23,647 bases of DNA from a virus (Duplodnaviria; Heunggongvirae; Uroviricota; Caudoviricetes). Shown in pieces: positions 1 through 13,649 of the stretch (position 1 is the first letter of the stretch; every line of letters begins with the position of its first letter). Under the pieces are notes generated by a model that was given only the letters and a program-made list of their open reading frames with translations, had not been told where the DNA came from and did no database searches. The translations under genes and the position numbers were made by a program. The DNA lies in the IMG/VR virus record IMGVR_UViG_2537561691_000015; one strand, given 5' to 3'.

Positions 1-1002
1 TTACCCTCTATTGTCAAAAGGGTTTAATTCAACAGCAGCCTCTAAATGACCCGGAGCAAAATGCGCATAACGCATAGTCATTTTTATATCGCTATGCCCC
101 AGTATTTTTTGCAACACAAGAATATTTCCGCCCCGCATCATAAAATGACTAGCAAACGTGTGACGTAGCACATGAGTTAATTGCCCATCAGGGAGCTCTA
201 TCTTCGCTCTCTTAATTGCAGCGTCAAAAGCCTCATAACATGGTGAAAATAGCGCTCCTCGTTTTTTAGGAAGCATAGCCTGCAATTGAGGTGAAATCGG
301 TACAGTGCGGTTCTTCTTTCCTTTAGTTTTAACAAATGTGATTCGACCGGGCAGTACTTGAGATTGCTTTAATCCTTCTGCTTCACTCCACCGAGCACCA
401 GTCGCAAGCCCAATACGGACAACAACCCCCAAATCTTTATTCCGTGACTCATCACACGCAATCAAAAGGCGTTCAATCTCATCTACATACAGAAACGCCA
501 GCTCCTTTTCTTCCTCACGAAACTTGCGAATTCCAGTCAGGGGGTTTTCACCAGACCACTCCCCAAGGCGCTTCAGTTCGGCAAAAACAGCATGTAGATA
601 TGACTGCTCGCGATTAACGGTTGCTTCACTAAGTTTTTTCTTCCCCTTGGGATTCCATTCTCCTGATAGCCTTCTTTCCCGATAAGTAGCAAACATATTT
701 TTGTCAAACTGAGAAGCAAATGGATCTCCCAGCCTAGAACAAATCGCCTCAAGTTTGACTTTGCGCTCTGCACCAGAGGACAAGGTTTTGCCGTACATCT
801 CAAACCAACGAGCAATCAACTCAGAAAGACGAGGACCAGAACCATCTTGAAACTCGTCTCCAACTCTACTATTCATTAAACGGCGCTCATAAGAGAGCGC
901 CTCACTTTTTGTCGCAAACTGTTTACGAATGCGTTTTCCCGATGCTCCGTAGGGATAACATTCGCAAAGCCATTTACCTGATGGAATCTTACGAACCGAC
1001 AT
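1..1002 (-). CDS. int: Tyrosine integrase (P2 Int-like), complete, stop codon at window edge
   Basis: 333 aa ORF; C-terminal catalytic box 'LRHTFASHF...GHSDIKMTMRYAHF' typical of tyrosine recombinases; last gene of the repressor operon as in P2. Confidence 0.9.
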   Translation of the reverse strand: MSVRKIPSGKWLCECYPYGASGKRIRKQFATKSEALSYERRLMNSRVGDEFQDGSGPRLSELIARWFEMYGKTLSSGAERKVKLEAICSRLGDPFASQFDKNMFATYRERRLSGEWNPKGKKKLSEATVNREQSYLHAVFAELKRLGEWSGENPLTGIRKFREEEKELAFLYVDEIERLLIACDESRNKDLGVVVRIGLATGARWSEAEGLKQSQVLPGRITFVKTKGKKNRTVPISPQLQAMLPKKRGALFSPCYEAFDAAIKRAKIELPDGQLTHVLRHTFASHFMMRGGNILVLQKILGHSDIKMTMRYAHFAPGHLEAAVELNPFDNRG

Positions 1003-1007
1003 TTTTG

Positions 1008-1355
1008 TTACTTATCACATAAATCAAATGCAGCCTTAGTGACGTCCCCCAGATTCTTTTTTAACCCAGGGGCGGCATCATTATCTAGCCAAAATGGATT
1101 ATTGTTATCTAACGGTAACGCACCAAATGTTTTACCTTTTATTCGAGCCAAACCTGTAAGCGCATATAACTTATTATCGTCAAAATTCATCACATAAGGA
1201 TTACCATCAAGACACTGCAATTGAACCTCATCTGTATTAAATGGCCATACTCCATTGAAACTCTCACGTTCAATAGTTTTAAAAGGCATTGCGACGGCGG
1301 AAAAAGAAAACATAGATAAAAAAGCAACTAATAGTTGAACCTTTTTTACTTTCAT
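1008..1355 (-). CDS. Small secreted/periplasmic protein of unknown function (cargo in lysogenic operon)
   Basis: 115 aa; N-terminal signal peptide 'MKVKKVQLLVAFLSMFSFSAVA'; two Cys (possible disulfide); GAGG ribosome-binding site upstream; stop 5 nt before int start. Confidence 0.6.
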   Translation of the reverse strand: MKVKKVQLLVAFLSMFSFSAVAMPFKTIERESFNGVWPFNTDEVQLQCLDGNPYVMNFDDNKLYALTGLARIKGKTFGALPLDNNNPFWLDNDAAPGLKKNLGDVTKAAFDLCDK

Positions 1356-1384
1356 GTCATTGCCTCAATTTAGCTCAAGTAAGA

Positions 1385-2035
1385 TTACAAATTAAAAAAC
1401 ATCCTAGAAATGGCTCCGCCTACCAAAACCCCTACGCAGATAAAGAATATTATTTCTTTTGGATAAAATCGGATTAATTCTGAAGCACGAAGGCGGACTT
1501 CTGGTAAGGTCGAATTCTCTGTGTGGCTTGATACCGATTGTTGCTCTAACCACGACAATGCAGACTGTAACTGAGAACGAGTAAGATCGTTTAAACGTCC
1601 TGTACCGAAATTGATATGGCAATACCGCAGAAGTTTTTGTCGAAGTCCACAGTCTTCACTGTTACGTAATAATAAACTTACAAGAGTCTTACAGGCATCA
1701 TGATCTTTACATCGCTCAAGCATTGCATGCAGAAAACTCTCCGCTGTTTTATATTGATTTATTGTCATATCATCAATACCAGCTACACCAATCTCCGCAT
1801 GTACTTTTTGCCAAATAATAAACGCTTCAGTATTGCTAGCTTCTGCAATAGCAGCAACCAAGCTATTTAGCTCCTTACGCTGTGCCTTAAGCAAAGGGCG
1901 AGCGTCATCATCATTATTCGAAGGGATTGCGATATTGACGGTATGAGAACCATCATATCGCTCTATCTGAATATTCTTTTCGTGAAAATCACGCCCAGCA
2001 ACGCGATTGTTTGAACCGTTTGAGTTGACGGCCAT
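1385..2035 (-). CDS. Tail-anchored membrane protein of unknown function (cargo in lysogenic operon)
   Basis: 216 aa; single C-terminal hydrophobic helix 'IIFFICVGVLVGGAISRMFF'; strong RBS GGGAGGTGA before ATG; starts 15 nt after repressor stop; N-terminal motif 'NNRVAGRDFHE' echoes the repressor C-terminus. Confidence 0.6.
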   Translation of the reverse strand: MAVNSNGSNNRVAGRDFHEKNIQIERYDGSHTVNIAIPSNNDDDARPLLKAQRKELNSLVAAIAEASNTEAFIIWQKVHAEIGVAGIDDMTINQYKTAESFLHAMLERCKDHDACKTLVSLLLRNSEDCGLRQKLLRYCHINFGTGRLNDLTRSQLQSALSWLEQQSVSSHTENSTLPEVRLRASELIRFYPKEIIFFICVGVLVGGAISRMFFNL

Positions 2036-2050
2036 GTCACCTCCCTACTA

Positions 2051-2455
2051 TCACCTACCCTTAGTTTCGTTATAGTCACGACCAGCGATACGGTTATTAC
2101 CACCAGAAATATTTAACTCACGCCCTGATGGCTGAGTTTCCTTTTCACTGCCCGCACTTTTTAAAGCCCCGATCACCGCGTTTTTTACATCTAACGAAGC
2201 TGCTCGAAAGCGAGTAATCAACTCCTGCTCATCATCGTTATAAGTTTCAGGTGAGTGAATTCCCAACACAACATACTGAACATCAAGGCCAAAACGAGAC
2301 AGCGCTGCCAAATACGCAGCATCAGGAAAGCTATCTCCTTTCTCATATCTAAGCTGAGTTAGCTTTTTGACTCCACCAATTTCGCTCATAGCAACTTGAC
2401 TAAGCCCCAATCTTTCCCTTTCCTCACGCAACCGCTGACCAATATCATTTTTCAT
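2051..2455 (-). CDS. HTH XRE-family immunity repressor (P2 C / 186 CI functional analogue)
   Basis: 134 aa; N-terminal helix-turn-helix 'LREERERLGLSQVAMSEIGGVKKLTQLRYEKGDSFP'; divergent from the early operon; first gene of the repressor-int operon. Confidence 0.8.
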   Translation of the reverse strand: MKNDIGQRLREERERLGLSQVAMSEIGGVKKLTQLRYEKGDSFPDAAYLAALSRFGLDVQYVVLGIHSPETYNDDEQELITRFRAASLDVKNAVIGALKSAGSEKETQPSGRELNISGGNNRIAGRDYNETKGR

Positions 2456-2470
2456 ACAAAAACCTTGACA

Positions 2471-2488
2471 GGTATCTTTTTTGATACC
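2471..2488. promoter_or_regulatory. Putative operator: perfect 6-6-6 palindrome GGTATC-TTTTTT-GATACC in the repressor/early-operon switch region
   Basis: Seen directly in sequence; lies between a TTGACA hexamer (2465-2470) and the early-gene start; GATACC half-site recurs at 2549-2554. Confidence 0.4.
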
Positions 2489-2530
2489 AAAATGATTTCA
2501 CGAGCTATTAGATGATCACAATATACCACT

Positions 2531-2737
2531 ATGAAACAAGTTCTTCACGATACCAGATCACGCATTCCGCGTAACACCGCCACAGGTCCAAGACTGGCAC
2601 TTCGGCTGTCCCTCGAAGAGCGAGCCGTCATTGATGAAATGGCAGCTAAAGAACAACGCTCATCCTCTAACATGGCGCGCATGATCTTCCTTCGCGGCCT
2701 AGAGCTAACCCAGAAAGAACAAAACAAATCTTCCTGA
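2531..2737 (+). CDS. Small DNA-binding regulator, first gene of early operon (Cox/Apl position; possibly ribbon-helix-helix)
   Basis: 68 aa; position equivalent to P2 cox / 186 apl; segment 'LALRLSLEERAVIDEMAAK...MARMIFLRGLE' resembles RHH-type regulators; family assignment not verified. Confidence 0.5.
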   Translation: MKQVLHDTRSRIPRNTATGPRLALRLSLEERAVIDEMAAKEQRSSSNMARMIFLRGLELTQKEQNKSS

Positions 2738-2753
2738 TCAGGAGGCTAGTGGG

Positions 2754-2957
2754 ATGTCAGGTATAACCATCAATATCAATGTGAATGCCCCCTATGTATC
2801 CCTGCAGAAATATGCAGAGATAACAGGTATCCCTCTTAATACATGCAAAAAGATGTTGGCTGACGGTCGAATTATTATCCGCCCCAAACGTGCCAAAATG
2901 GAAAAGCCTGAAGTAAACCTTGTGGCGATGTTAAAAGACGCTTTGGCTAACAGCTAA
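2754..2957 (+). CDS. Putative excisionase/AlpA-like HTH DNA-binding protein
   Basis: 67 aa; 'YVSLQKYAEITGIPLNTCKKMLADGRI' resembles excisionase-type winged HTH; RBS CAGGAGG upstream. Confidence 0.5.
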   Translation: MSGITININVNAPYVSLQKYAEITGIPLNTCKKMLADGRIIIRPKRAKMEKPEVNLVAMLKDALANS

Positions 2958-2978
2958 AACAATGAACAGAGCATCATC

Positions 2979-3329
2979 ATGAAAAAACACGCTAATAATC
3001 CATACTCCAAATTTCGTAATGGCGTAGAACGCCATATACACCACGTCGCTACCAGTGCATCACGTAGTAACAATCGCTATAACCTGAACGAGACGCACGC
3101 AACACCAGATGGGCACGCTGTAAAACAAATCGGCGAACACACCTGGCTGATTGAGAAAGCTGGAATAGTGGTTCACAGATGCTCACGCAATCCGTTTACC
3201 GGAAACCGCATTTTTGCATTAAGCAACGGCGATAATCAGTTCGGGCAGGATTTTACATTGTACGAAGCACTGCGCACAGTCGATCGTTTGCTTCGCGGGC
3301 AAAGTTTTATTAAACAGGCTGATTTATAA
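2979..3329 (+). CDS. Hypothetical early-operon protein
   Basis: 116 aa ORF with ATG start, co-directional and tightly spaced in the early operon. Confidence 0.5.
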   Translation: MKKHANNPYSKFRNGVERHIHHVATSASRSNNRYNLNETHATPDGHAVKQIGEHTWLIEKAGIVVHRCSRNPFTGNRIFALSNGDNQFGQDFTLYEALRTVDRLLRGQSFIKQADL

Positions 3330-3339
3330 CAGGTGCTTT

Positions 3340-3618
3340 ATGACTAAAGACCATGCACAAGGTGTATTTATCCGCTTTATTGATTTTCGCGGTGAACTGT
3401 TATTACGCGCATCAGCTATTGACGGAGTAGTTCCATCTGAAAAAAATGCAGCTACCTACGTTTATCTGAACGGTACGCGCCTGACAGTAGAACTTCCGTA
3501 CCAGACCGTTCGCGAAATAATTAACGAAGCTGAAAAAGCTCGTCAGGTTAATGGCGATGAACCCTATATCGAAATTATCTGCATGGATTCAGAAGCTGAA
3601 ATTCAGAAAGCAGATTAA
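3340..3618 (+). CDS. Hypothetical early-operon protein
   Basis: 92 aa ORF, ATG start, RBS-like AGGTG upstream. Confidence 0.5.
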   Translation: MTKDHAQGVFIRFIDFRGELLLRASAIDGVVPSEKNAATYVYLNGTRLTVELPYQTVREIINEAEKARQVNGDEPYIEIICMDSEAEIQKAD

Positions 3619-3629
3619 AGGGCGTTGCG

Positions 3630-3872
3630 ATGGGCAAAGAATATAAGACTCTCATAAACAAAGCACTTGAGCGTTTTTATTTTCGCTTAAGTGCATCAGG
3701 TACTCATGCTGAACGTGCAGCCCGTGACTCATTAACCAGGGCAATCCGGAGTCTGTATGACGTGGCTTTTTACGCTGATGATCTGGATGCACTTAACGAA
3801 CTTTCCGAGCTGATCTGTGCCGCAGAATGCGGGGAGCATATTGAACCGTATAAGCTGGGGAATATTGCATGA
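3630..3872 (+). CDS. Hypothetical early-operon protein
   Basis: 80 aa ORF, ATG start 11 nt after the previous stop. Confidence 0.5.
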   Translation: MGKEYKTLINKALERFYFRLSASGTHAERAARDSLTRAIRSLYDVAFYADDLDALNELSELICAAECGEHIEPYKLGNIA

Positions 3873-3982
3873 GTATATTTATCTCATGGCTTGTTCTGAT
3901 TATTTCGGTGGTCTGCGCCATTGGGATTATGCGAATTATTCGTTCAGTAAAAAAGATTGACCGCTTTTTCACTGGCGAATAA
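3869..3982 (+). CDS. Small hydrophobic peptide (37 aa), possible small membrane protein
   Basis: ORF MSIFISWLVLIISVVCAIGIMRIIRSVKKIDRFFTGE read directly; start overlaps upstream stop (ATGA); below the length cut-off of the ORF track. Confidence 0.3.
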   Translation: MSIFISWLVLIISVVCAIGIMRIIRSVKKIDRFFTGE

Positions 3983-4069
3983 CAGCGCAAATAAAAACCC
4001 TAGGTTAAATAAGAAAATGTAAAAACAATCCGCATTCGCGGAGGTATTCGCACACGCCCAGGAGGTGTA

Positions 4070-4273
4070 ATGGCAATTAAGCATTTTCCTGTCGTTCGTT
4101 TCACTTCCAGAGGACGTGAATACGAAGTCGACGAACGCCTGATTACCACAATCGACAAACACCGCTCAGAAAAGGATGCACACCACATCTATCTCACTGA
4201 CGGTACTTACTTCTGCGCCACTAATGTGGTGCGGGTGAATCTTATCCGACAGGTACAGGATCCACGCAAATGA
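4070..4273 (+). CDS. Hypothetical early-operon protein
   Basis: 67 aa; strong RBS CAGGAGGTG before ATG. Confidence 0.5.
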   Translation: MAIKHFPVVRFTSRGREYEVDERLITTIDKHRSEKDAHHIYLTDGTYFCATNVVRVNLIRQVQDPRK

Positions 4274-4488
4274 GCAGGAGAAGAATCACTCGCAAACATC
4301 ACCGCACACACCTGAATTCCTCAGCAACGCTAAAGGCACTTATTAAAAGCGAGATCGGTGATTTCTTCGCGGGAGTTGGCTCGCCAGGTGAACCAGAAAC
4401 ACCAGAAGCGATACAGCGTGAGCTCATGATACGCATAGATAGCACTTTTGATTTCTTCTACAGCATGCACGGAATTAAACAGAAATGA
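4270..4488 (+). CDS. Hypothetical early-operon protein
   Basis: 72 aa; ATGA overlap with upstream stop (translational coupling). Confidence 0.45.
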   Translation: MSRRRITRKHHRTHLNSSATLKALIKSEIGDFFAGVGSPGEPETPEAIQRELMIRIDSTFDFFYSMHGIKQK

Positions 4489-4596
4489 ACCTCAAGCCAG
4501 CAATAACTACTCGTAGAACGCCAATTCCTGTAACCGACCGCTTCTGAGTTTTTTGGCAGGAAGCCTTCGCACATCCTTAGTAGAGAGAATTGCAGC

Positions 4597-4986
4597 ATGA
4601 TTGACGCTCATGACTTCACAAGATGGGTGCGCACACAGGACACCCGTCTGGCTCCCGTTCTTCAGGGATTATTTGATCTCTACATCCGTAGTCGTGACAA
4701 CAGAGCACGCACTACAAAACCGGAGAATGCAGACACCCTTTATTTCACAGTAGACGACTGCTACCGCGTGGACTTAACACCACACGGGCTGGCGTTGCGC
4801 TGCCTGACACCGCATGGCGAATCACTGCTGGCGTATTACGACTCCCCGACCTCCGTATTTGCGGCAATGCTGGCGCATCACACTGCTGGCGGGTGTGCCT
4901 CGCTGAGTGAATACACCGCTGAATTTAACCGCCTTTCCACCCTCTTCTCGCAGGAGTGGCAGCGCGTGACGGGATACCAGCCATGA
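4597..4986 (+). CDS. Hypothetical early-operon protein immediately upstream of the replication gene
   Basis: 129 aa; its stop overlaps the ATG of gene A (ATGA). Confidence 0.5.
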   Translation: MIDAHDFTRWVRTQDTRLAPVLQGLFDLYIRSRDNRARTTKPENADTLYFTVDDCYRVDLTPHGLALRCLTPHGESLLAYYDSPTSVFAAMLAHHTAGGCASLSEYTAEFNRLSTLFSQEWQRVTGYQP

Positions 4987-7748
4987 GTGAGTTTGCATGG
5001 AGCTGGAATGAACCACGGCCAGCCATTGATCCGGACAGATTTACGGAGCGCAGGCAGGAAACTGAAACCGAGCTGCAACGCGCCATCCGTTACTACCTTG
5101 AGGCGGACAAAAAGGCCCGTAAAGAACAGGAAGCGAAGGAGGAAGCCTTTTTCGCACAATCCACCGTGGGTAAAAAACTCATGGCATCCCTTGAGGAAGC
5201 CGGACAGCGTGAAAAGCTGGCACAAAGCATCATCAGCAAGCGTCAGGCAACAGAACAAGACCCGGTGGCCCGTGCTTTTGCCACACTGAAGGTGCTTCCC
5301 GTTTATCTGCGTGAACCTCTGAGCCGCCACCTCTCTTTCCTGCGCAAAAAACAGGAATCCGATCGTCAGAAAGGCAAAAAGAGCTGGCAGGCTGAACGCT
5401 ACGCGCGCGGAACCCTGCGCAAAATATTCGTACGTCTGGACCGCACCGACAGCCGTTGGCTGACACCGGGTTATCGGTCCCTTGCCGGACGTGAACGCCT
5501 GGACGATTTGCTTTACCTGCCGCAACTCAACAAACACCAGATACAGACGCTGGCCACCATGACGGCGGCGATGTTCAGCAGCACCTTCGAAAAACTCTGC
5601 GATGGTTTTGGCGCGACCGATGGCGAGCTGACCATGGATGTAACGCTGAAGGCGTATCAGATGCTGGCCCGCATGGCGTTACACTTGCACGCCATGCCTC
5701 CGCATTATGACGCACTGACAACAGACAAAGACCGGAGGAACGAACCGGACACAGAACTGCTGCCGGGCGCAATCCTTCGCCTGACCTGTGCGGAATGGTG
5801 GAAACGCAAACTGTGGCTGTTACGTTGCGAGTGGAGAGAAGAACAACTCCGCGCCGCCTGTCTGGTTTCCAGAAAAACATCGCCCTATTTGAGCCAGGAC
5901 GCGTTAAGCGAGTTTCGCGCACAGCGCGAGAAAACACGCGATTTCCTGAAAAGTTTCATGCTGGAAAACGAAGACGGGTTCACGATTGATCTCGAGACGG
6001 TGTATTACGCGGGAGTAAGTAACCCGGTTCACCGTAAGGCAGAAATGATGGCCACCATGAAGGGGCTGGAACTTCTGGCCGAAGCCCGTGGCGACAAAGC
6101 GGTGTTTCTGACTGTCACCTGCCCGTCAAAATACCACGCCACAACAGAGAACGGTCATCCGAATCCCAAATGGAACGGGGCCACCATGCGCGACTCCAGC
6201 GATTACCTGGTTAACACGTTTTTTGCGGCGGTCCGCAAAAAACTGAACCGCGACGGTCTTCGCTGGTATGGCATCCGCACGGTGGAGCCTCACCATGACG
6301 GCACCGTGCACTGGCATATGATGGTCTTTGCTCATCCGGAAGAAATCGACAGCATCGTGGCCATCACCCGCGATATTGCCATTCAGGAAGACCGCCACGA
6401 GCTGGGCAATGATATTACTCCGCGCTTTAAGGCGGAGTATGTCGACGGCTCAAAAGGCACACCAACCAGCTATATCGCGACCTACATCGGAAAGAACCTG
6501 GACAGCCGCGCCGTGGATGGCATCGACCCGAAAACGGGCAAGCCACGCGTTGACCACGAAACCGGAAAATCAATGGCCGAGAGTGTGGAGCGCGCCATCG
6601 GCTGGGCGCGCCTTCATCGGGTCCGCCAGTTCCAGTTCTTTGGCATCCCCTCCCGTCAGGTGTGGCGTGAACTGCGCCGCCTTGCCAGCCAGATGGCACG
6701 CAACCCGGAAGGCCCGCAACGACTGAAAGATGACGCAATGGATGCGGTACTCGCTGCCGCCGATGCCGGGTGTTTTGCCACCTACATTGAAAAACAGGGC
6801 GGCGTACTTGTTCCACGCAAAGACTACCTGATTCGCACCGCCTACGACCTCGCAGATGAGCTGAATGATTACGGCGAACAGAGCGTACAGATTTACGGGA
6901 TCTGGTCACCACTCATCGGGGAATCCTCCCGTGTGTGCACGCATCCGGATAACTGGAAACTGGTAAGACGTAAACCGGAAACGGAAGACAGCGCCCGCGA
7001 AAATGGTTTTGACCTTCAGGGCGGCCCTGCCGCCCCTTGGACTCGTGGCAATAACTGTCCCCGTGTACAGGAAACGGACAACAACGGGACAGAACAGCCG
7101 GAAGAACGGCCAGCACCGTGGCCGCGGCTTCCTGAAGGCGTTGACGTGAATGAATGGATGCGCTCACTGAAACGGCACGAACGCCGGGCACTGATGCGTT
7201 CGCTGCGTGACAAACAGGCAAAAAACAGCAGTGATGAAATGCAGAACTGGACACAGAGCCGCAAACAGCCACAGCCTTTGCCTGATAACCACGAGTTACT
7301 CGCTAAAGAATGGCGGGAGGCTGCTGAATCTCTCGGCCTGCATATCGGTGAACAGCAGATGCAGCACCTGTTACGAGGCGGCAGTCTGTACGTTGGCGGC
7401 AGCATCATTGCACCGCAGGGATTTGAAATTGTACGCAAACAGGATACCCGCCCGGACAGCCGAATCACGCAGCTCTGGCAACGCCTGAGTCGTAATCACG
7501 GCGTAAGCAGCACGGAGATCCGCCATAACCCGGTCGCCAGCTATCTGGAACAACTAGAGGCATCAGACCCTGAAGCCGCCGCACGCCTGGCATCCACACT
7601 TCAGCAAGACCAGAACACCATGAAAACACCCGTTACCGTACTTTCTGACATGCTGCGCGCCATCCGCGACGCAGAGCACGCACAGAGAATCAGTGAAACC
7701 ACTAAACATGCTCGCAAAAAAATCAGTTTATTGCATCGAACACGATAG
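4983..7748 (+). CDS. A: Rolling-circle replication initiation endonuclease (P2 gpA family)
   Basis: 921 aa from ATG 4983 (the track's 4956 start is GTG); HUH-type motif 'VEPHHDGTVHWHMMVF' closely matches my recollection of P2 A; last gene of early operon as in P2. Confidence 0.9.
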   Translation: MSEFAWSWNEPRPAIDPDRFTERRQETETELQRAIRYYLEADKKARKEQEAKEEAFFAQSTVGKKLMASLEEAGQREKLAQSIISKRQATEQDPVARAFATLKVLPVYLREPLSRHLSFLRKKQESDRQKGKKSWQAERYARGTLRKIFVRLDRTDSRWLTPGYRSLAGRERLDDLLYLPQLNKHQIQTLATMTAAMFSSTFEKLCDGFGATDGELTMDVTLKAYQMLARMALHLHAMPPHYDALTTDKDRRNEPDTELLPGAILRLTCAEWWKRKLWLLRCEWREEQLRAACLVSRKTSPYLSQDALSEFRAQREKTRDFLKSFMLENEDGFTIDLETVYYAGVSNPVHRKAEMMATMKGLELLAEARGDKAVFLTVTCPSKYHATTENGHPNPKWNGATMRDSSDYLVNTFFAAVRKKLNRDGLRWYGIRTVEPHHDGTVHWHMMVFAHPEEIDSIVAITRDIAIQEDRHELGNDITPRFKAEYVDGSKGTPTSYIATYIGKNLDSRAVDGIDPKTGKPRVDHETGKSMAESVERAIGWARLHRVRQFQFFGIPSRQVWRELRRLASQMARNPEGPQRLKDDAMDAVLAAADAGCFATYIEKQGGVLVPRKDYLIRTAYDLADELNDYGEQSVQIYGIWSPLIGESSRVCTHPDNWKLVRRKPETEDSARENGFDLQGGPAAPWTRGNNCPRVQETDNNGTEQPEERPAPWPRLPEGVDVNEWMRSLKRHERRALMRSLRDKQAKNSSDEMQNWTQSRKQPQPLPDNHELLAKEWREAAESLGLHIGEQQMQHLLRGGSLYVGGSIIAPQGFEIVRKQDTRPDSRITQLWQRLSRNHGVSSTEIRHNPVASYLEQLEASDPEAAARLASTLQQDQNTMKTPVTVLSDMLRAIRDAEHAQRISETTKHARKKISLLHRTR

Positions 7749-7793
7749 AAATATAGAGCTAAGGCCGCCCTAGGAATAAGGAGGCCTTGAAAA

Positions 7794-8603
7794 TCAACCT
7801 ATCTTCTTATGAAGTAAAATTAATTTCTGTATTAATTTGGAATGAAACATTGATATATCAGAAATTCTTATTTCATTAGGCGAGTCTATATGATTGGAAA
7901 CTTCTTCCTCCAAGGAGTCACAAATACTTTCTAGATTTTCAATATCTGCATTTAATTCTGGAAAACTATTAAACAAATATAATGAATCCCGTAACTCTCC
8001 TAGTTTTGGTAAAAGAGTATTACTGAATACACTAAGAAACTCCTCTTCTGATAATGCCATGGAGTTTTTAAAACTTTGCACAACATCGAATGCCAACCCA
8101 TTAATTTTAGGCATAATTACTTCTCTTACCCAATACCCTTCATTAATAGCTTCTTTACGTTCTTTTCTATGTTGAACACAAGGAATAACAAAGGATGAAA
8201 CTAAAGCAAATAAAGAGATGCCAATAGAAATCCACTCTGGACCATTTTCCGGAACCTTTACAATATTATATATATCATAGGAATTTGGAACATCTTTGAA
8301 ATAATTAGCAAATAAATCTTTTTTGTTATCCCTTGCCAGAGATAACTTATGAAAGGTGTCGTTTGCCTTTTCACAAAACATCAAGCCATCATTCGGGTTT
8401 CCGGATAACAAAAACGGTGATGATATACCACTAAGTCCTGAATCGGAAATATAAAAAGGCGTGTTTGGATAAAGTGATTCATTACATTCAATGTTTTCTT
8501 TATTGGAAAAATCTGTCACAGAGCAAGCTGCGGGGAATATAAAAAAAATGACAGACAGCGCTGTCATTTTGATTTGAAAAATATTTTTAAAAGAAGGGAA
8601 CAT
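7794..8603 (-). CDS. Membrane protein with N-terminal signal peptide and one internal transmembrane helix (third gene of cargo operon)
   Basis: 269 aa; N-terminal 'KNIFQIKMTALSVIFFIFPAACS' signal-like; TM 'WISIGISLFALVSSFVIPCV'; AAGGAG RBS; overlaps upstream gene by 17 nt; AT-rich codon usage. Confidence 0.6.
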   Translation of the reverse strand: MFPSFKNIFQIKMTALSVIFFIFPAACSVTDFSNKENIECNESLYPNTPFYISDSGLSGISSPFLLSGNPNDGLMFCEKANDTFHKLSLARDNKKDLFANYFKDVPNSYDIYNIVKVPENGPEWISIGISLFALVSSFVIPCVQHRKERKEAINEGYWVREVIMPKINGLAFDVVQSFKNSMALSEEEFLSVFSNTLLPKLGELRDSLYLFNSFPELNADIENLESICDSLEEEVSNHIDSPNEIRISDISMFHSKLIQKLILLHKKIG

Positions 8604-8931
8604 TTTTATGTAAGCCTCTCCTTACAGCTCTATCTAATTCAGAAAGCATACCTTCTTTATATTCACGACCATCAAGTACAGTGCGACTATAAAATTCGCT
8701 AGGCGAAGAAAATTTCGGCAAAACCGTTTCAAGCATACCTAGAAAGTATGAGCTTGATACAACAATTCCCTTGGGGATCAATAGATATAATCTATCATTA
8801 CTGGTTGTGCAAAATTTCCCTATATTAAAGTAATCATAGGCCTGGCGCCCATTAGAACGTCCAGCAAAAAGTTTCTTGTTACTATCTTTTACTAACTTAT
8901 TGAAATCTATGGTGATGTCAGCCATTTTCAT
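8587..8931 (-). CDS. Small STAS-like (anti-sigma-antagonist / DUF4325-like) protein, second gene of cargo operon
   Basis: 114 aa; 'IDF...GIVVSSSYFLGMLETVL' resembles the SpoIIAA/STAS phospho-serine region; starts 10 nt after gene-1 stop with a GAGGA RBS; family call from memory only. Confidence 0.55.
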   Translation of the reverse strand: MKMADITIDFNKLVKDSNKKLFAGRSNGRQAYDYFNIGKFCTTSNDRLYLLIPKGIVVSSSYFLGMLETVLPKFSSPSEFYSRTVLDGREYKEGMLSELDRAVRRGLHKNVPFF

Positions 8932-8941
8932 GTACCTGTCC

Positions 8942-10321
8942 TCAAGTTCGCTGGGTGGCGTTTTCTGGTAGAGGAAAACGAATATTGATCATAACTCCAG
9001 GAAATCGAGCATCCTTCATACGCTTAAGATAGTTGCGATCCGGTTCAGATTCAAGCCCTACATCATTAAAAGGGTAAGTAAAAATGTCACTTTCCTCGTC
9101 ATTAACCAACCTTTGCTTTAATTTATATGATCCATCAAAGTTAATATGAGTACTACCAGATATTAAAGTCATTTTTATCCCACCTTTAATATCTCTTCCC
9201 ATTTTTTTAAGATTATCATGCATATCTTGAAATAACTTCAATAATTCAATTGTTCCGGTGCCAGAACTGTCAGTTTCTTTCTCGTTTTTACAACTCACCC
9301 GCCCTTGCAAGGCCGCTACTGTTGTTAATCCTTCCTTAAACATACCCTTTTTCTTAATATGCTTATTTATGTATGGATTAACTTGTTGACTTAATGAAAA
9401 ATGATCCTCAGGTAAATTATCAAAAGTTTCGCTGATAGTTTTCCCAAAATTGAAAACAGCCAACTCACATATGGGGTTTCGTACGTTATTATTAACAAAA
9501 CCTCTCAAATACCAGCGTGGGCGTTGCTCTAACCCACAATGCCGCTCCGCATTATCAAGGAGTTCCCCCATGCAGGAAGTTAAATGCTTTTCTGCCTCAT
9601 GTACAAGTTTTAAATTATGATCATTTAAGCATTCGTTTATGTATGCGGTAAATTTTTCAGCAGTGACATTTTTTCTGTCATGGGCAAAGGCAGAAGCATT
9701 CTCCTTTCCGATACTATCAGCAGAGAAGATTCGTTTCTTCGGATTCGCTTTTTTCGATGCTTCAGTAGAGTCCAGAACTTTACCTGGTGCAGCATTACTA
9801 ATCTCTTTTACAAGCCCGACATCCCTGATAATTTCAAGATACTGTTCATCTTTAGGGTAGATACCATTAATCTGAATCATCGTATCTTTGAAATTTATAT
9901 TACTTTGCCTTGCTGCTGTAAGAGCAACACCTAATAGACACTCAAGACCAAGACAGTGTTTTTTGTTTTTCTTGTAATCAAAAATATATGATTTCCATTT
10001 ACCTCTTGCAATTAATTTTGTGGCTGCACTAATAAATAGCAGAGATTTCTCTGGATTGTCATATAAGTCAAAATATTTAGGTATTAATATCTTCTCTGCG
10101 TCACGACGAAGAATTGATGAGTCATACTCTTTTATAATCGATATATTTTCAATGAACGTAGCGACTTGGTTTTGGACAGGAGTTGTTTCATCGGAAAAAC
10201 GAAGACTACCATTTTTCTCTTGCGCAGGCTTTTTTTTCTTAGCTCTCTCAACGCTACGAAGAAATCGCAACCATCCACGTAAAAAGGTTCTTTTAGAATC
10301 TTCTTTATTGATTTTTTTCAT
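8942..10321 (-). CDS. GHKL/HATPase_c-like ATPase-domain protein (SpoIIAB/RsbW-type N-box), first gene of cargo operon
   Basis: 459 aa from ATG 10321 (the track's 10417 start is TTG and lies inside phased repeats); N-box-like 'GELLDNAERH' (E-x3-N-A-x2-H) and G2-like 'DSSGTGTIELL' in the C-terminal half; N-terminal ~230 aa basic region of unknown function; AT-rich. Confidence 0.6.
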   Translation of the reverse strand: MKKINKEDSKRTFLRGWLRFLRSVERAKKKKPAQEKNGSLRFSDETTPVQNQVATFIENISIIKEYDSSILRRDAEKILIPKYFDLYDNPEKSLLFISAATKLIARGKWKSYIFDYKKNKKHCLGLECLLGVALTAARQSNINFKDTMIQINGIYPKDEQYLEIIRDVGLVKEISNAAPGKVLDSTEASKKANPKKRIFSADSIGKENASAFAHDRKNVTAEKFTAYINECLNDHNLKLVHEAEKHLTSCMGELLDNAERHCGLEQRPRWYLRGFVNNNVRNPICELAVFNFGKTISETFDNLPEDHFSLSQQVNPYINKHIKKKGMFKEGLTTVAALQGRVSCKNEKETDSSGTGTIELLKLFQDMHDNLKKMGRDIKGGIKMTLISGSTHINFDGSYKLKQRLVNDEESDIFTYPFNDVGLESEPDRNYLKRMKDARFPGVMINIRFPLPENATQRT

Positions 10322-10400
10322 TTCCAAATGTTCCTGCAAAGTTAACGTAGCCCACAAGGCGCTAAGTATACTTTCTGCTATATTTTTTTCACTATACAAA

Positions 10401-10427
10401 TGCACAATAGTGCACAAATTTGCACAA
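10401..10427. promoter_or_regulatory. Three helically phased direct repeats TGCACAA (starts 10401, 10411, 10421) upstream of the cargo operon; candidate operator/activator site
   Basis: Seen directly; exact 10-bp periodicity; on the operon strand they read TTGTGCA and sit just upstream of -10-like TATAGT and TATACT hexamers. Confidence 0.4.
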
Positions 10428-10801
10428 TTTTTTTGAACGACTTTTTGCCCTTCCGGCCCGCATGGTGGCTGGATCCGTCAAGGATCCGTGCGTGCACAAA
10501 AAAACGCATTTTTTCTGCGCGCAGGTGACGGGGGAACAGCCCGCGTTTCAGGGGGTAAATAGCATCCCCTGAACGATGTCGCAGCGACACAACAGAATGG
10601 CTGTATTTCTCACGCTGAGCGTGAAAAAGACGTGAGGGCTTTTGATTTGATGGGGTGAAAGGTAAGGCCGTCAAAATCGCACTGAGACGGCGAGAACATG
10701 CAGTCAACGCGGTGGGATTGCGTAAGAGTCTGACTGTCGATGATGGCAATCAGCAGGAAAGCGTCGTGAAATTATCTGACTGATACAGGAGCTGGAGAGT
10801 C

Positions 10802-10851: not shown

Positions 10852-11898
10852 TCAGGATGTGGGCTGGGTGTCTAACAGTGCGTAAGGGTTAAAGCGGATC
10901 ACCTCTTCGCCAAGCCAGTCATTGATGTGCTTCATGGCCTCCATGACGGGCATCAGCTCGTTAATTGCGTAAACCCGCGCGGCCTTCTCCACATCACCAA
11001 ACGCACTTTTTTCGCCCGGCATCGCCCCCATCAGTTGCGGCGGAACGCGGTGCGCAGCCAGCACATCATCACGGGATGCCGCCTTAACATTCATGAACTC
11101 ATCTTTTGCGGTGATCTGCTGGAACGGCAAAATTTGCACCCCTTCTTTGCCCCCGTTGGGCGCATGAATGAGCACGTTTTTAAATGCACCACCACCACGC
11201 GCACCCTGTAACGTTTCTTTCAGGGAGTCCATGCTTTCGCGGTTTACCTGCGCTGCACCGATGTAGATGATGCACCCGGCGTGGGATCCGTTGTCGTAGT
11301 ACAGTTTTCTGAACATGTCCGCCGAATGAGAAAGGCTGGCCGAGAGTAATGCGCCAAGATATTCCGGCATGCCGTAGATTTCCTGGTTAATATCCGGATT
11401 CATCAGGTGGCACACTTTGCCAGGGCGAAACTGGAACGCGTCCTTGCCATCCTGCACATACCACCATGATTCAAGATCGCTTCCGCGTCGCATGTATTTC
11501 GCCAGGGCGTGCCGTAATTTAAGCGGTTCGCCGAGCATATTGCTCCGAAGCTCAAGGAATGCGTTACCGAACACAAACCAGTCCAGCGCCAGCGCCGAGA
11601 AATCCTGCCGGGAAAGCAGCGGGTGCGGGATGTAGCAACCGAGTAATACATTGCGCTTAAAGTAAAGCGCAGACTGATGCCAGGACGTTTGCCGGGCGGC
11701 TCTTGCCAGACCGTACCAGTCCACCGGGGTTTCATACCACCGCCCGTTATCAGCACAGTACATATTGTCCAGCAGGTCATGCCCGGTCAGGCGATAAGGA
11801 CCATCAAATGTGAATGCACTGAGCGATGATTCTTTCCTGAGCGCATCAGCGAGATCAATGCGTGAACTCATGCGCACTTTTTTATTTTTTCTGCTCAT
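10852..11898 (-). CDS. Q: Portal protein (P2 gpQ-like)
   Basis: 348 aa (P2 Q about 344 aa as I recall); start overlaps P stop (ATGA); canonical position next to large terminase. Confidence 0.9.
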   Translation of the reverse strand: MSRKNKKVRMSSRIDLADALRKESSLSAFTFDGPYRLTGHDLLDNMYCADNGRWYETPVDWYGLARAARQTSWHQSALYFKRNVLLGCYIPHPLLSRQDFSALALDWFVFGNAFLELRSNMLGEPLKLRHALAKYMRRGSDLESWWYVQDGKDAFQFRPGKVCHLMNPDINQEIYGMPEYLGALLSASLSHSADMFRKLYYDNGSHAGCIIYIGAAQVNRESMDSLKETLQGARGGGAFKNVLIHAPNGGKEGVQILPFQQITAKDEFMNVKAASRDDVLAAHRVPPQLMGAMPGEKSAFGDVEKAARVYAINELMPVMEAMKHINDWLGEEVIRFNPYALLDTQPTS

Positions 11899-13649
11899 CA
11901 GAACTCCATAACCGTGAAACGCTCGTTTTCTCCTTCGCCGCCAATTGGTTCGTTAATGACAGCAAGCATGGTTGCCCACGCAAGGTCGCCGTGGCTGATC
12001 CCCCTCGCGCGGTCCGTTTCGTAAGTGATAAAGCCGCCCGGTGTTTTCACCTTACGCACGGCGTTAAAGGCCGCGACCAGCTCGCGTTCGGCGCGATCGT
12101 ATTCCCACCGCCCTGCACGCATTATTTGCAGCATTTTCAGTACCAGCGACCGTTTTGATGACAGCGTGAAGGTGTACGGAATAGCGGCAGGGAAAAACCG
12201 TTTCACTATCTGATAAACAGCCTCCCCGTTCCCGCCCGTCACATCAATGCCGATGTGTTCCACGTTGTAGTGACACGTGAACTCTTCAATGACTCTGGCC
12301 TGTTCTTCAAACTCCAGCCCCTGAACGCGTCGCGTCTCCACCGTTCGAAAACGGCCACCAGGAACAGCCGGAGGAACCACCACGGACACAGCGCCGCTGT
12401 CGCCGTTGCCACTGCTGCCGTTTGCGTCATACCCAATCCATACCGGGCGATTCCCCATCGGGCGGGGAGCAAAAGGTTTCCAGTCTTTCCAGTCGTCGTA
12501 TCCGTCAACACCACAGCCAATCAGGATATTCAGGTTAAATGCCGATTCCCCTTCGCGGACAAACTCACACATATAGAGATTGAGGAACTCGTCTTCGGTG
12601 TTTTCATCACGAATTTCATCAATATCGGTGTGTTTCCAGCCGTGATTAACCACATCTTCCAGCGTGACAATTTGCCGCCACGTCCGGTCAGGGCAGATAA
12701 GCCCGTTATGCAGCGTTTTCCAGTCCACAGAAAAACGCTGGCGTTTATGCGTGGCCTTTTTCTCGTTCCAGCGGTCGCCGTTCCAGTAGGCGTATGCCTC
12801 GTGCGTTTCGGTGGATGGCGTGGAGAAGTAGGTGCGCCGCAGTCCGCTGAGGGTTGCCATAGCGCCAGCCACCTTGCGCAGTTCAGCAAAGCGACTGACC
12901 CAGAAGAATTCATCAAAATAAAAATTGCCCGTATAGGACTGTGCCGACGCAGCAGAAGTGCCGAGAAAATGCAGCTCTGCGCCGTTGGAGAGGATGATTT
13001 TATCGCCCCCTTTCAGCTCCACATCAACTTCAGCCGCGGCCTTCTGAATAATGCTTTTAAACTGGAACGCCTGACGACGCGACGCAGACAAAAAAATCTG
13101 GTTACGCTGATAAGGTTGCACCACATCGTCACGCAGCGCCATCAGCAGTGCTTCCTGTGCAAAATACCAGGTCGCCCCAATCTGTCGGGATTTCAGGATC
13201 ATCCTGTTACGTATCCCGGCTTCCCTGCAAAGGGTCAGGGAGTCAAACCAGCCCCGCTGATGCCACTCCAGCCTGCTGATGATTTTTTCCCGCAGTGCGG
13301 CAATCTGTTCCGGCGTGAAATGATTTTTGAGTTTTTTCGCCCGGCCTTTCTTTCCTGCGGCCATCACATCCGGCTGGCCATCATGCAGCTTTTTAAGCTG
13401 CCGTGTCAGCAGGTCTATTTCCTTGAAGTCACCGCCTGTTTTATTCTGTTTTTCAGTAAGCTGGATGAGGCGCGCATCAATGGATTGCGTGACACGCTGC
13501 ACGGGTGGCGTTTCATCCCACTGGTCGCGTTTTTTCCACGCATAAATCGTGTTCGGGTTTATTCCCATCAGACGTGATATTTCTGCGGGCGGATAACCCT
13601 GCCAGTAAAGTTGTCGCGCACGCTGGCGCACAAAAGCGTCCTGAATCAT
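11898..13649 (-). CDS. P: Terminase large (ATPase) subunit (P2 gpP-like)
   Basis: 583 aa; GGGGGAG RBS; divergent from the O operon exactly as in P2. Confidence 0.9.
   Translation of the reverse strand: MIQDAFVRQRARQLYWQGYPPAEISRLMGINPNTIYAWKKRDQWDETPPVQRVTQSIDARLIQLTEKQNKTGGDFKEIDLLTRQLKKLHDGQPDVMAAGKKGRAKKLKNHFTPEQIAALREKIISRLEWHQRGWFDSLTLCREAGIRNRMILKSRQIGATWYFAQEALLMALRDDVVQPYQRNQIFLSASRRQAFQFKSIIQKAAAEVDVELKGGDKIILSNGAELHFLGTSAASAQSYTGNFYFDEFFWVSRFAELRKVAGAMATLSGLRRTYFSTPSTETHEAYAYWNGDRWNEKKATHKRQRFSVDWKTLHNGLICPDRTWRQIVTLEDVVNHGWKHTDIDEIRDENTEDEFLNLYMCEFVREGESAFNLNILIGCGVDGYDDWKDWKPFAPRPMGNRPVWIGYDANGSSGNGDSGAVSVVVPPAVPGGRFRTVETRRVQGLEFEEQARVIEEFTCHYNVEHIGIDVTGGNGEAVYQIVKRFFPAAIPYTFTLSSKRSLVLKMLQIMRAGRWEYDRAERELVAAFNAVRKVKTPGGFITYETDRARGISHGDLAWATMLAVINEPIGGEGENERFTVMEF

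Follow-up and report, generated by a model that had tools for sequence, protein, structure and literature searches.

What is encoded by the three tightly packed minus-strand genes that lie between the replication gene A and the portal gene Q of a P2-like prophage in E. coli? The first-pass annotation of this DNA saw in them a candidate anti-phage system, undescribed and acquired horizontally, in which an ATPase and a STAS-like protein are joined to a membrane protein. We have examined the locus, its three products and their relatives, working from a window of 23,647 nucleotides that covers this part of the prophage. We call the three genes of the cassette A, B and C, in the order of transcription, and the flanking replication gene gpA. 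The arrangement is as follows.

4956-7748, plus strand: gpA replication endonuclease (flank)
7794-8603, minus strand: gene C, 269 aa, predicted bitopic inner-membrane protein (RefSeq WP_001548207)
8587-8931, minus strand: gene B, 114 aa from ATG 8931 (RefSeq WP_000763711, 112 aa from 8925)
8942-10321, minus strand: gene A, 459 aa from ATG 10321 (RefSeq WP_000723541)
8942-10417, minus strand: long open reading frame form of gene A, 491 aa from a TTG
10852-11898, minus strand: portal gene Q (flank)

A foreign operon in the gpA-gpQ hotspot

The flanking genes, gpA and Q, bear out the placing of the cassette at the P2 tin/old hotspot, that is, the gpA-gpQ hotspot of P2 as defined previously (PMC9122126). 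This hotspot of P2-like phages houses validated defence systems, and also cargo unrelated to defence, with about one quarter of the loci carrying partition systems and about 2% a cytolethal distending toxin (PMC9122126). Genes A and B are separated by 10 nt (8932-8941) and genes B and C overlap by 17 nt (8587-8603), exactly as first annotated. Between the stop codon of gene C and the end of the convergent gpA lie 45 nt, with no further cargo gene on the minus strand. At 2.65 kb, the cassette is compact.

The base composition of the cargo is foreign to its surroundings. The GC content is 0.348 over 7794-10400 (0.361, 0.357 and 0.319 for genes A, B and C, respectively), as compared with 0.562 in gpA, 0.539 in Q and 0.529 in the rest of the window. 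The cargo junctions lie at about 7749 and at 10400/10401, and from 10401 onward the same sequence occurs in P2-like phages with other cargo, phage P88 among them. The contrast between a cargo of about 35% GC and a backbone of about 53% thus supports the horizontal acquisition proposed earlier.

The true start of gene A is almost certainly ATG 10321, because MKK or MRK at the equivalent position opens all 44 aligned homologues, the RefSeq annotation also has 459 aa, and no promoter-like site precedes gene A except the one at 10392-10365, which falls downstream of the TTG. On these grounds the TTG start was set aside.

Protein A combines STAS-like and SpoIIAB-like domains

Protein A consists of a basic N-terminal helix followed by two domains.

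9707-10114, minus strand: STAS-like domain of A, approximately aa 70-205
8966-9676, minus strand: GHKL (Bergerat-fold) kinase-like domain of A, approximately aa 216-452

In the STAS-like domain, E127 and G153 are invariant, the motif (C/S)-L-G-x-E-x-L-L-G opens helix 124-139, and position 122 is Y, H, F or W in 35 of the 45 homologues. The second domain is SpoIIAB-like and has the Bergerat fold. Three of its elements are invariant in 45/45 homologues: E253, N257 and H261 of the N-box (E253-x3-N257-A-x2-H261), whose E-x3-N supplies the Mg/ATP and catalytic residues in GHKL proteins, the lid Q339...S343-x-K345, and both glycines of the G2 box (D-S-x-G354-T-G356-T), a G-x-G motif that opens a helix. 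The domain ends with the motif F440-P-G442. The G1 box is canonically D-x-G-x-G, with the Asp contacting adenine N6. In A its position was set by the location of the strand end in the model and by the register against D190-F-G-V-G of VapK, and it reads N291-F-G293-K-T295; the Asn and the Gly are invariant and no homologue (0/45) has an Asp. The first-pass annotation had overlooked this atypical G1 box. In Hsp90-type GHKL proteins, an Asp-to-Asn change at G1 abolishes ATP binding; judging from N291-F-G-K-T, protein A may therefore be no ordinary ATP-dependent kinase.

Profile searches place A at the edge of the known families. The window's protein A itself has no Pfam match at E<=1. Among the 45 homologues, three match HATPase_c_2 and two HATPase_c, the best HATPase_c_2 match (E 0.007, 16.8 bits) being below the cut-off of 27.4. 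The description of A as a GHKL-like ATPase thus stands on fold, N-box and G2 box, but it reaches neither the Pfam gathering score nor a canonical G1 box (NxGxT instead of DxGxG).

Protein B is a probable, divergent DUF4325/STAS-like protein with an invariant serine cluster

Protein B is small, and its conserved C-terminal tail, R-R-G-L-H-K-N-x-P-F-F, is disordered. The AlphaFold2 (AF2) model has a pLDDT of 89.6, falling below 50 for tail residues 108-112, and it has no significant match among solved structures. The homologues of B form 33 clusters, and B together with its 32 close homologues gave no direct Pfam DUF4325 or STAS match at E<=1. A profile of the family detected 101 relatives, 8 of which match Pfam DUF4325 (best E 3.7e-8), the only family matched by more than one of the 101. 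B is thus probably a remote relative of DUF4325 ("STAS-like"), by way of these intermediates. The earlier STAS-like call is thereby supported only indirectly, and not by a direct Pfam match.

8749-8757, minus strand: codons Ser57-Ser58-Ser59 of B (112-aa numbering), where helix 58-65 begins

These three serines are invariant in 33/33 close homologues, at least 90% of 102 remote relatives share S59, and 'SSYFLG' is retained in Vibrio, Aeromonas and metagenomic loci. Helix 58-65 of the model begins at the cluster, so that a conserved Ser stands at the N-terminus of the second main helix. In the hhalign register S58 lies opposite Ser48 of VapS, in an alignment that is statistically non-significant. 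Ser57-59 is a candidate phospho-acceptor, aligned with VapS Ser48.

Protein C is a predicted single-pass membrane protein with a variable outer segment

Hydropathy and the topology pattern of the homologues agree with the first annotation that the third gene encodes a membrane protein. Its predicted parts are:

8523-8603, minus strand: signal peptide of C, aa 1-27 (hydropathy)
8241-8522, minus strand: predicted periplasmic segment of C, aa 28-121 (identity profile)
8172-8240, minus strand: transmembrane helix of C, aa 122-144 (Kyte-Doolittle mean over 19 residues as high as 2.26)
7797-8171, minus strand: conserved cytoplasmic domain of C, aa 145-269 (helical)

The signal peptide comprises the n-region MFPSFKNIFQIK, a hydrophobic core and then a lipobox-like F-P-A-A-C27|S. 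Most homologues likewise have a Cys following the core (TAC|S, TGC|S, PGC|S), and in a few an AxA-type signal takes its place; this pattern makes C a putative lipoprotein. Secretion signal and bitopic topology are kept across genera. Residues 28-108 are hypervariable, a short, low-complexity stretch that ranges from about 45 aa in one homologous locus (L006) to about 95 aa here, and they are followed by the conserved juxtamembrane motif Y-N-x-V-x-V-P-E-x-G-P-E-W. Enterobacterales homologues are 7-42% identical to the window protein over aa 28-108, 46-69% over aa 109-121 and 49-72% in the cytoplasmic domain. The latter carries the motif x-I-N-E-G-Y-W158-x-R160-E-V162-I-M-P165 after the transmembrane helix and then L-G-E-L-R205-D-S-L; W158, V162 and P165 never vary among the homologues from E. 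coli, Klebsiella, Vibrio, Aeromonas and metagenomes, and R160 and R205 hardly do. C has no match to PIN or any other Pfam family, and none of the 21 clusters of homologues falls in a Pfam, NCBIfam or PADLOC family. The best PADLOC-DB match of C, PDC-S02 (E 0.031, 12.4 bits), is at chance level.

The triad is conserved across genera and recurs beside defence genes

Of 5426 complete E. coli genomes, 23 (about 0.4%) contain the cassette; the flanks are common to 1404 genomes. All 23 copies consist of three intact coding sequences, and decay was not seen. In the six other loci inspected (Klebsiella, Vibrio, Aeromonas and metagenomes), the three genes are always together and in the same order. One of these loci is in the same P2 hotspot, and another occupies the CI-int slot of a P2-like prophage; one adjoins a type I restriction-modification system and an AAA_15 ATPase, one belongs to an integrase-flanked island with a type III restriction-modification system, and one, in a lambdoid prophage, neighbours HNH-SRA, NERD and HipA genes. 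Neither a sigma factor nor a PP2C phosphatase gene was found in the cassette or in these six loci. No relative of A was found in 50,697 GenBank phage records.

The claim that the system is undescribed must be qualified. PADLOC-DB v2.0.0, NCBIfam and Pfam provide no named system for A, B or C, in line with the first-pass annotation, and A and B have no family match in PADLOC-DB v2.0.0. However, the exact triplet is already listed as P2-hotspot system 19 by Rousset et al. 2022 (Table S5B), with the label 'HATPase_c | DUF4325', 155 occurrences and the remark '1 TM in protein 3'; the HATPase_c label came from HHpred. A and B are identical to system 19 over the printed part, and C differs at two residues. 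System 19 is a catalogue entry only, with no name, test or proposed mechanism, and the cassette is missing from the tested systems (Rousset et al. 2022, Table S2). Gene B was moreover flagged by DefensePredictor (2026) as a 'predicted novel defense gene' (mean log-odds 7.46), and the architecture is known from VapKSC. What stands is that our literature search found no experimental test of this cassette and no paper naming its accessions.

Comparison with VapKSC and other kinase-STAS systems

The only characterised relative is VapKSC, in which a STAS-GHKL kinase, a DUF4325 antitoxin and a PIN toxin give anti-phage activity, with about 2-log protection against Bas42 (Chambers et al., EMBO J 2026, PMC13373217). 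The present cassette shares the three-gene operon, the order kinase, small STAS protein, effector, the lack of a phosphatase gene and the frequent proximity to other defence genes. A, like VapK, has a STAS domain and then a SpoIIAB-like GHKL domain. B, like VapS, is a protein of about 115 aa, probably of DUF4325 type, with a conserved Ser at a helix start and a C-terminal tail; in VapS, the serine and the C-terminal region are both needed to neutralise VapC (PMC13373217), and VapS itself matches DUF4325 with an E value of 2.7e-17. The differences are also clear. The third gene encodes a single-pass membrane protein with a signal peptide and not a PIN nuclease such as VapC; A (459 aa) is larger than VapK (302 aa) and has long inserts and an additional basic region at its N-terminus; its G1 box reads NFGKT and not DFGVG; and VapKSC is experimentally supported, whereas the cassette is known here from sequence alone. 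Profile comparison gave no significant homology (A-family HMM against VapK, -4.1 bits; B-superfamily HMM against VapS, 6.4 bits), and the hhalign probabilities were 0.4% for A and VapK and 2.3% for B and VapS; nonetheless, the motifs were in register.

CapK-CapS likewise pairs, in anti-phage loci, a GHKL kinase containing an internal STAS domain with a STAS-domain partner, CapS, which is phosphorylated on a conserved Ser (PMC13373217). CapK has an N-terminal HTH, and CapS a C-terminal winged-helix DNA-binding domain that represses the downstream operon; B, with only 112-114 aa, has no DNA-binding domain. As for SpoIIAB-SpoIIAA and RsbW-RsbV, they differ from the cassette in that its operon holds no sigma factor or PP2C phosphatase, the kinase domain of A is fused to its own STAS-like domain and falls short of Pfam HATPase_c_2, the third partner is a membrane protein, and the context is Enterobacterales prophage cargo instead of a developmental or stress regulon. 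P4-hotspot system 69 bears the same label, 'HATPase_c | DUF4325' (Rousset et al. 2022, Table S1B). Its protein 1 shares the order of A (basic N-terminus, 'F-P-x-x-F-S-I-Y' strand, STAS-like block, N-box, G1) and is collinear with it over 194 columns (hhalign E 0.006, probability 6%), but it has a canonical G1 (YDLGVGI), is 368 aa long and belongs to a different mobile element.

A model for the cassette and its alternatives

We propose, at somewhat less than even confidence, that the cassette is a VapKSC-type module, that is, a kinase-gated, toxin-antitoxin-like abortive-infection system with a membrane effector. A would be the sensor-kinase and B its substrate, acting as antitoxin. In the uninfected cell, the STAS face and the conserved C-terminal tail of unphosphorylated B would bind the conserved cytoplasmic domain of C and keep C inactive. 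An infection cue, which by analogy with CapK and VapK may be phage-derived ssDNA held between the two domains of A, would activate A; A would then phosphorylate Ser58/59 of B, and B would release C. Freed C would damage or depolarise the inner membrane, so that the infected cell is stopped before the competing phage finishes its cycle. We infer that the cassette acts in defence, that A is a kinase for Ser58/59, that B binds C, that an infection cue activates A and that C is toxic to the membrane. Several observations point to this model: the hotspot site, the conserved and undecayed triad, the invariant motifs of A, the link of B to DUF4325, the operon layout, and two independent assessments, namely the label of Rousset et al. 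and the DefensePredictor score. Against it stand the non-significant homology to VapK and VapS, the lack of a direct Pfam match, the non-defence cargo of the hotspot, the atypical G1 of A, the lack of a significant structure match for B and the absence from phage records. In addition, C would be an unusual effector, as it spans the membrane once and carries both a signal peptide and a domain in the periplasm.

The G1 box bears on whether phosphotransfer occurs at all. A could be a pseudokinase or nucleotide-sensing binder, comparable to the kinase-inactive anti-sigma factor UsfX, that sequesters B or the cytoplasmic domain of C until a shift in the nucleotide pool or a phage protein swaps the partner and frees C. 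We consider such a switch unlikely. The invariant Asn for the G1 Asp and the Thr for the second G1 Gly in 45/45 homologues would fit it, as would the STAS-like domain of A, which could serve as an internal competitor, and the absence, from the cassette and the other loci examined, of a phosphatase gene that would reset phosphorylated B. However, the invariant E253, N257, Q339/S343/K345 and G2 glycines are hard to explain without nucleotide chemistry, and the invariant serines of B are exactly where STAS substrates get phosphorylated. Moreover, VapKSC is also devoid of a phosphatase, yet it works by phosphorylation-mimic logic (PMC13373217). The direction of signalling could also be reversed, with C as a sensor or membrane anchor whose hypervariable periplasmic segment detects phage attack at the envelope and whose conserved cytoplasmic domain signals to A and B, and A as the effector that phosphorylates host or phage proteins to block infection. 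The arms-race pattern of C, with a periplasmic segment far more variable than the cytoplasmic domain, and its conserved secretion signal and topology speak for this. C is moreover single-pass, and such proteins are unusual as pore-forming effectors. Yet a short, low-complexity stretch that changes in length also fits an unconstrained spacer, and the third gene is the toxin in VapKSC. SpoIIAB-type kinases are, furthermore, dedicated to their own STAS partner and are not broad-specificity effectors, so that this reversal also has a low probability in our estimation. Still less probable is a pathway combining both ideas, in which the lipid-anchored hypervariable segment of C would sense phage at the envelope and relay this by way of the conserved cytoplasmic domain to A, and A, with its Asn G1, would have a non-canonical nucleotide specificity or act as a pure partner-switch.

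The cassette may also have nothing to do with defence and serve lysogenic conversion or prophage maintenance, for example as an envelope lipoprotein with its level or activity set by a kinase/STAS switch, as a superinfection exclusion system at DNA entry or as an addiction (toxin-antitoxin) module. The partition systems and toxins of the hotspot, the lipoprotein-like appearance of C and the lack of a PADLOC-DB match are compatible with this. We think it rather improbable, since the triad recurs outside P2 prophages, next to restriction-modification systems and further defence genes, an independent machine-learning prediction (DefensePredictor) calls it defence, the architecture is that of the validated anti-phage system VapKSC, and superinfection exclusion would itself be anti-phage.

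If the VapKSC-type model is validated, the pair of GHKL kinase and DUF4325/STAS protein would be a portable control unit: beside the transcription factor CapS and the PIN toxin VapC, which it is known to gate, it would here gate a membrane effector. The partner-switching logic of sporulation and stress would thereby reach another class of abortive-infection effectors. Two questions go beyond the VapKSC precedent: which nucleotide, if any, A uses, given its invariant G1 Asn, and whether the hypervariable periplasmic segment of C senses outside the cytoplasm. An outside-in partner-switching immune pathway, if real, would have no described counterpart in phage defence.

Putative regulatory and junction elements

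The compact size, a promoter-like site and the well-defined hotspot make cloning and testing of the cassette straightforward. Three elements border the genes.

10365-10392, minus strand: promoter-like site, GTGAAA-16 nt-TATACT
7754-7773, minus strand: weak terminator-like hairpin 3' of gene C, in the 45-nt spacer facing the gpA end
10401-10432, strand not assigned: conserved element of the backbone, outside the cargo, at the junction on the Q side

The promoter-like site belongs to the AT-rich cargo and precedes ATG 10321 by about 45 nt; with 9/12 consensus matches it is weak evidence of a promoter, the regional count of such sites being no higher than in shuffled sequence. ATG 8931 of gene B is preceded, at 7 nt, by a Shine-Dalgarno sequence, GAGGA. 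The overlap of genes B and C, 17 nt here, is 4 and 14 nt elsewhere, and these overlaps suggest that the two genes are translationally coupled. On the plus strand, the three TGCACAA repeats of the element at 10401-10432 form a hairpin, GTGCAC-AAATTT-GCAC, with a T-run behind it; the element is kept in phage P88, which carries other cargo, and in a Klebsiella P2-like prophage.

Genetic organization of the cassette

The window is a P2-like prophage of E. coli (Peduoviridae, P88/Xuanwuvirus-like). The first-pass annotation had described three minus-strand ORFs between gpA and Q, the first two separated by a 10-nt gap and the last two overlapping by 17 nt, in AT-rich DNA set against a GC-rich backbone. 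This arrangement and both spacings (A-B, 10-nt gap; B-C, 17-nt overlap) proved exact, and the GC content is 0.348 over 7794-10400 versus 0.53-0.56 in the flanking phage genes. The relevant features are the following.

1-1002, integrase
4956-7748, plus strand, replication gene A (gpA)
7794-8603, minus strand, gene C ORF, 269 aa
8587-8931, minus strand, gene B ORF, 114 aa
8942-10417, minus strand, gene A ORF, 491 aa when read from TTG
10392-10365, minus strand, promoter-like site, the only one upstream of A
10401-10432, backbone element at the Q-proximal junction, three TGCACAA repeats with 10-bp spacing (plus strand)
10504-10520, minus strand, terminator-like hairpin with a T-run (GCGCAGAAAAAATGCGT + TTTTTTGTGC), downstream of portal Q
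10852-11898, minus strand, portal Q
11898-13649, minus strand, terminase P, followed by capsid, lysis and tail genes

The start of gene A is better placed at ATG 10321 (459 aa), because all 44 aligned homologues begin at an equivalent MKK/MRK, the RefSeq annotation is 459 aa and the promoter-like site lies downstream of the TTG; the 491-aa form was rejected on these grounds. The Q-proximal junction of the cargo is sharp (10400/10401), and the sequence beyond it recurs in P88 and other P2-like phages, whose cargo differs. On the plus strand, the conserved element at 10401-10432 reads as a hairpin (GTGCAC-AAATTT-GCAC) with T7 behind it. P88, which has different cargo on the plus strand, shares this element, and a P2-like prophage of Klebsiella shares it less well. 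The element resembles a plus-strand terminator or insulator bounding the hotspot. The threefold TTGTGCA repeat upstream of gene A was considered as a cargo operator and rejected, since it is conserved backbone present in P88 with other cargo. Given the hairpin at 10504-10520 downstream of Q, read-through of the late Q-P transcript into the cassette is probably limited, and the cargo is probably driven by its own promoter. An Rfam scan of the entire window gave no match.

The triad is mobile and associated with defence genes

The order A-B-C was kept in all six other loci examined, including the following.

Klebsiella P2-like prophage: triad in the same gpA-gpQ hotspot
Vibrio parahaemolyticus island: triad adjoining type I R-M genes, an AAA_15 ATPase and an IS element
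Metagenomic integrase-flanked island: triad with a type III R-M system
Aeromonas lambdoid prophage: triad adjoining an HNH-SRA nuclease, a NERD protein and HipA
L006, another P2-like prophage: triad in the CI-int interval

At L006 (9691-10345), the public gene call gives a C of 93 aa only, but an open frame of about 205 aa runs through without interruption and encodes the signal peptide, the conserved cytoplasmic domain and the TM helix, so that this locus also has all three genes. A-B-C is a mobile, defence-associated triad.

Among 5426 complete E. coli genomes, 23 carry the cargo, always with three intact CDS, versus 1404 that have the flanks. At the nucleotide level over the whole cassette, 21 of these copies share at least 99.7% identity, whereas two represent a 78% allele; the triad therefore circulates in E. 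coli as two lineages or more. Protein A was absent from 50,697 GenBank phage records (tblastn). The carriers of the 78% allele are NZ_AP045789.1 and NZ_AP045800.1 (hits H52 and H53). The prophage of E. coli WS1933D (L001) is 100% identical to the window over the cargo and its flanks (7600-10800) and differs in the early lysogeny/regulatory region (window 1-4950 versus L001 1-6400), which is mosaicism of P2-like prophages around a common cargo.

A second AT-rich accessory slot seems to lie on the minus strand at 1008-2035, between the integrase and an HTH repressor (2051-2455). Its GC content is 0.36-0.41 versus about 0.53 for the backbone, and it codes for two proteins, one of 115 aa belonging to DUF2511 (Pfam E 1.3e-5) and one of 216 aa without Pfam or PADLOC match. 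This slot may also exchange cargo, because the triad at L006 occupies the CI-int interval.

Sequence features of the three proteins

Direct profile searches with A gave no Pfam, NCBIfam or PADLOC match above threshold; in PHROGs it matched phrog_3364, of unknown function (E 2.9e-7). At 90% identity the A family falls into 59 clusters, whose named members are all gamma-proteobacterial and all annotated as hypothetical. All 45 homologues keep the N-box residues E253, N257 and H261, the lid residues Q339 and S343 and the G2 glycines G354 and G356 without exception, and K345 of the lid is nearly invariant (41 of 45). The G1 box reads N291-F-G293-K-T with an invariant Asn, whereas the GHKL norm is D-x-G-x-G. 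Only three of the 45 homologues gave HATPase_c_2 matches, all below threshold (best E 0.007, spanning the N-box to G1). A profile search of PDB sequences with the family alignment returned no match at E<=10, and hhalign gave an uninformative probability of 0.14% against an approximate B. subtilis SpoIIAB sequence. In hhalign, the N-terminal domain of A aligned with the B superfamily at a probability of 0.6%, over a stretch that is the equivalent strand-helix motif but that we do not count as evidence.

The close family of B (33 clusters) is strongly conserved. Numbered on the 112-aa RefSeq form, the invariant positions are G22-R-x-N25-G26, V55-x-S57-S58-S59-Y60 and a C-terminal R-R-G-L-H-K-N-x-P-F-F tail. 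An AF2 model (pLDDT 89.6), confident outside the tail, places the serines at the predicted N-terminus of helix 58-65. Foldseek of this model against the PDB gave no significant match (best E 0.46), and the profile search of PDB sequences with the B-family alignment gave none at E<=10. Pfam matched neither B nor its close relatives, and NCBIfam, PADLOC and PHROGs gave nothing above threshold for B. HMMER with the B-family profile retrieved 101 relatives from 1.84 billion representative proteins, and DUF4325 ("STAS-like domain of unknown function") was the sole Pfam family matched more than once among them (8 of 101, best E 3.7e-8). Because of these eight relatives B may be called STAS-like, a term that here denotes a transitive sequence link and not a fold.

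Protein C had no family match above threshold in Pfam, NCBIfam, PADLOC or PHROGs, the matches being at chance level. In most homologues a positively charged n-region precedes a hydrophobic core, after which comes a Cys in a lipobox-like setting (F-P-A-A-C|S in the window; TAC|S, TGC|S or PGC|S elsewhere); a few have an AxA-type signal. The stretch that follows varies in both length and sequence, and leads to a conserved juxtamembrane motif (V-P-E-x-G-P-E-W), a single membrane helix (aa 122-144) and a conserved cytoplasmic domain beginning I-N-E-G-Y-W-x-R-E-V-I-M-P. Among Enterobacterales homologues, identity to the window protein is 7-42% over aa 28-108 and 49-72% over aa 145-269. These features suggest a lipoprotein with a periplasmic N-terminal part and a cytoplasmic C-terminal domain.

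Relation to catalogued and characterized systems

Rousset et al. 2022 (PMC9122126) defined the gpA-gpQ interval as a hotspot, in which 18,150 loci showed 1,650 arrangements. Table S5A of that study lists WP_000723541 (A), WP_001548207 (C) and WP_000763711 (B) together repeatedly, and system 19 of Table S5B is the exact triplet with sequences, labelled "HATPase_c | DUF4325", with 155 occurrences and "1 TM in protein 3". The label and the triplet sequences are both absent from Table S2, which lists the tested systems. We therefore rejected the validated P2 system of "3 hypothetical proteins" conferring P1 resistance ("three genes without predicted domain") as the identity of the cassette, none of the three sequences being in that table. 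In DefensePredictor (PMC13092281), WP_000763711.1 figures among the entries labelled "predicted novel defense gene" (mean log-odds 7.46), which is a prediction only. No functional description of the cassette was found in literature searches under DUF4325, STAS with anti-phage terms and the RefSeq accessions. The overall observation of the first-pass annotation was correct and its domain intuition good, but its term "undescribed" needs qualification: the cassette is unnamed, yet it has been catalogued, it has been flagged computationally as candidate defence and it has a characterized architectural relative. As a candidate it is well founded and simple to test, but not surprising.

That relative was described by Chambers et al. 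(EMBO J 2026, PMC13373217), together with CapK (HTH, STAS and GHKL kinase domains) and CapS (a STAS-wHTH repressor). The vapKSC operon encodes a STAS and GHKL kinase (VapK), a STAS protein with a C-terminal tail (VapS) and a PIN toxin (VapC). VapC is bound by VapS and thereby neutralized; neutralization fails with the phosphomimetic S48E and also when the tail is deleted. Against phage Bas42 the operon protects by about 2 logs, an effect abolished by VapC D28A, VapS S48A or VapK F54A, F54 being the predicted ssDNA-contact residue (PMC13373217). Using the VapS and VapK sequences extracted from the authors' AlphaFold3 file, we found VapS to be a clear DUF4325 member (Pfam E 2.7e-17) and VapK to match HATPase_c below threshold (E 8.5e-5); the label "HATPase_c | DUF4325" of Rousset et al. 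therefore denotes a VapK/VapS-type pair.

The cassette has the architecture of vapKSC in gene order, in a kinase (putative for A) with an internal STAS domain, in the lack of a phosphatase gene and in a tailed protein of about 115 aa that carries a conserved Ser and is of DUF4325 type in VapS and, by the transitive link, probably in B. The families differ, however: the A profile scored -4.1 bits on VapK and the B profile 6.4 bits on VapS, with hhalign probabilities of 0.4% and 2.3%, respectively. Within these weak alignments, E253/N257/H261 of A fall opposite E156/N160/H164 of VapK, N291-F-G293 opposite D190-F-G192, and S58 of B opposite S48 of VapS, a register that we take as a lead, not as proof. 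The putative effector differs completely, a membrane protein in place of a PIN nuclease, and the cassette is set apart from VapKSC by effector class, kinase G1 motif and family membership. The HATPase_c protein of P4-hotspot system 69 (Rousset et al.) is collinear with A over 194 columns (hhalign E 0.006, probability 6%) and, unlike A, has a canonical G1 box (YDLGVGI).

A tentative mechanism and its alternatives

We propose, giving it somewhat less than an even chance, that the cassette is a VapKSC-like, kinase-gated abortive-infection module, in which we infer everything from kinase activity onward. A would be a kinase activated by infection, and B both its substrate and an antitoxin that restrains C through the latter's conserved cytoplasmic domain. 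Once B is phosphorylated on Ser58/59, C would be released and would compromise the inner membrane, thereby aborting the infection. A stoichiometric B-C pair would fit the translational coupling of the two genes, which overlap by 17, 4 or 14 nt depending on the locus (three loci), and a docking-peptide role would suit the B tail because it is conserved yet disordered.

The invariant Asn in the G1 box of A, together with a structural similarity to the kinase-inactive UsfX, would suit a partner switch without phosphotransfer by A, but the invariance of the catalytic and phosphate-binding residues makes this unlikely. The roles could also be reversed, C being an envelope sensor, as its hypervariable periplasmic segment might suggest, and A the effector kinase; we hold this to be improbable, as the segment is short, variable in length and of low complexity. 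Finally, the mixed content of the hotspot would accommodate lysogenic conversion, envelope exclusion or plain addiction, but the recurrence of the triad beside R-M systems outside P2 makes such a non-defence role improbable.

For the kinase-gated module, ssDNA is a candidate trigger by analogy with CapK and VapK. Position 122 of A, which precedes the STAS helix and is mostly aromatic (Y/H/F/W in 35 of 45 homologues), is a possible equivalent of VapK F54.
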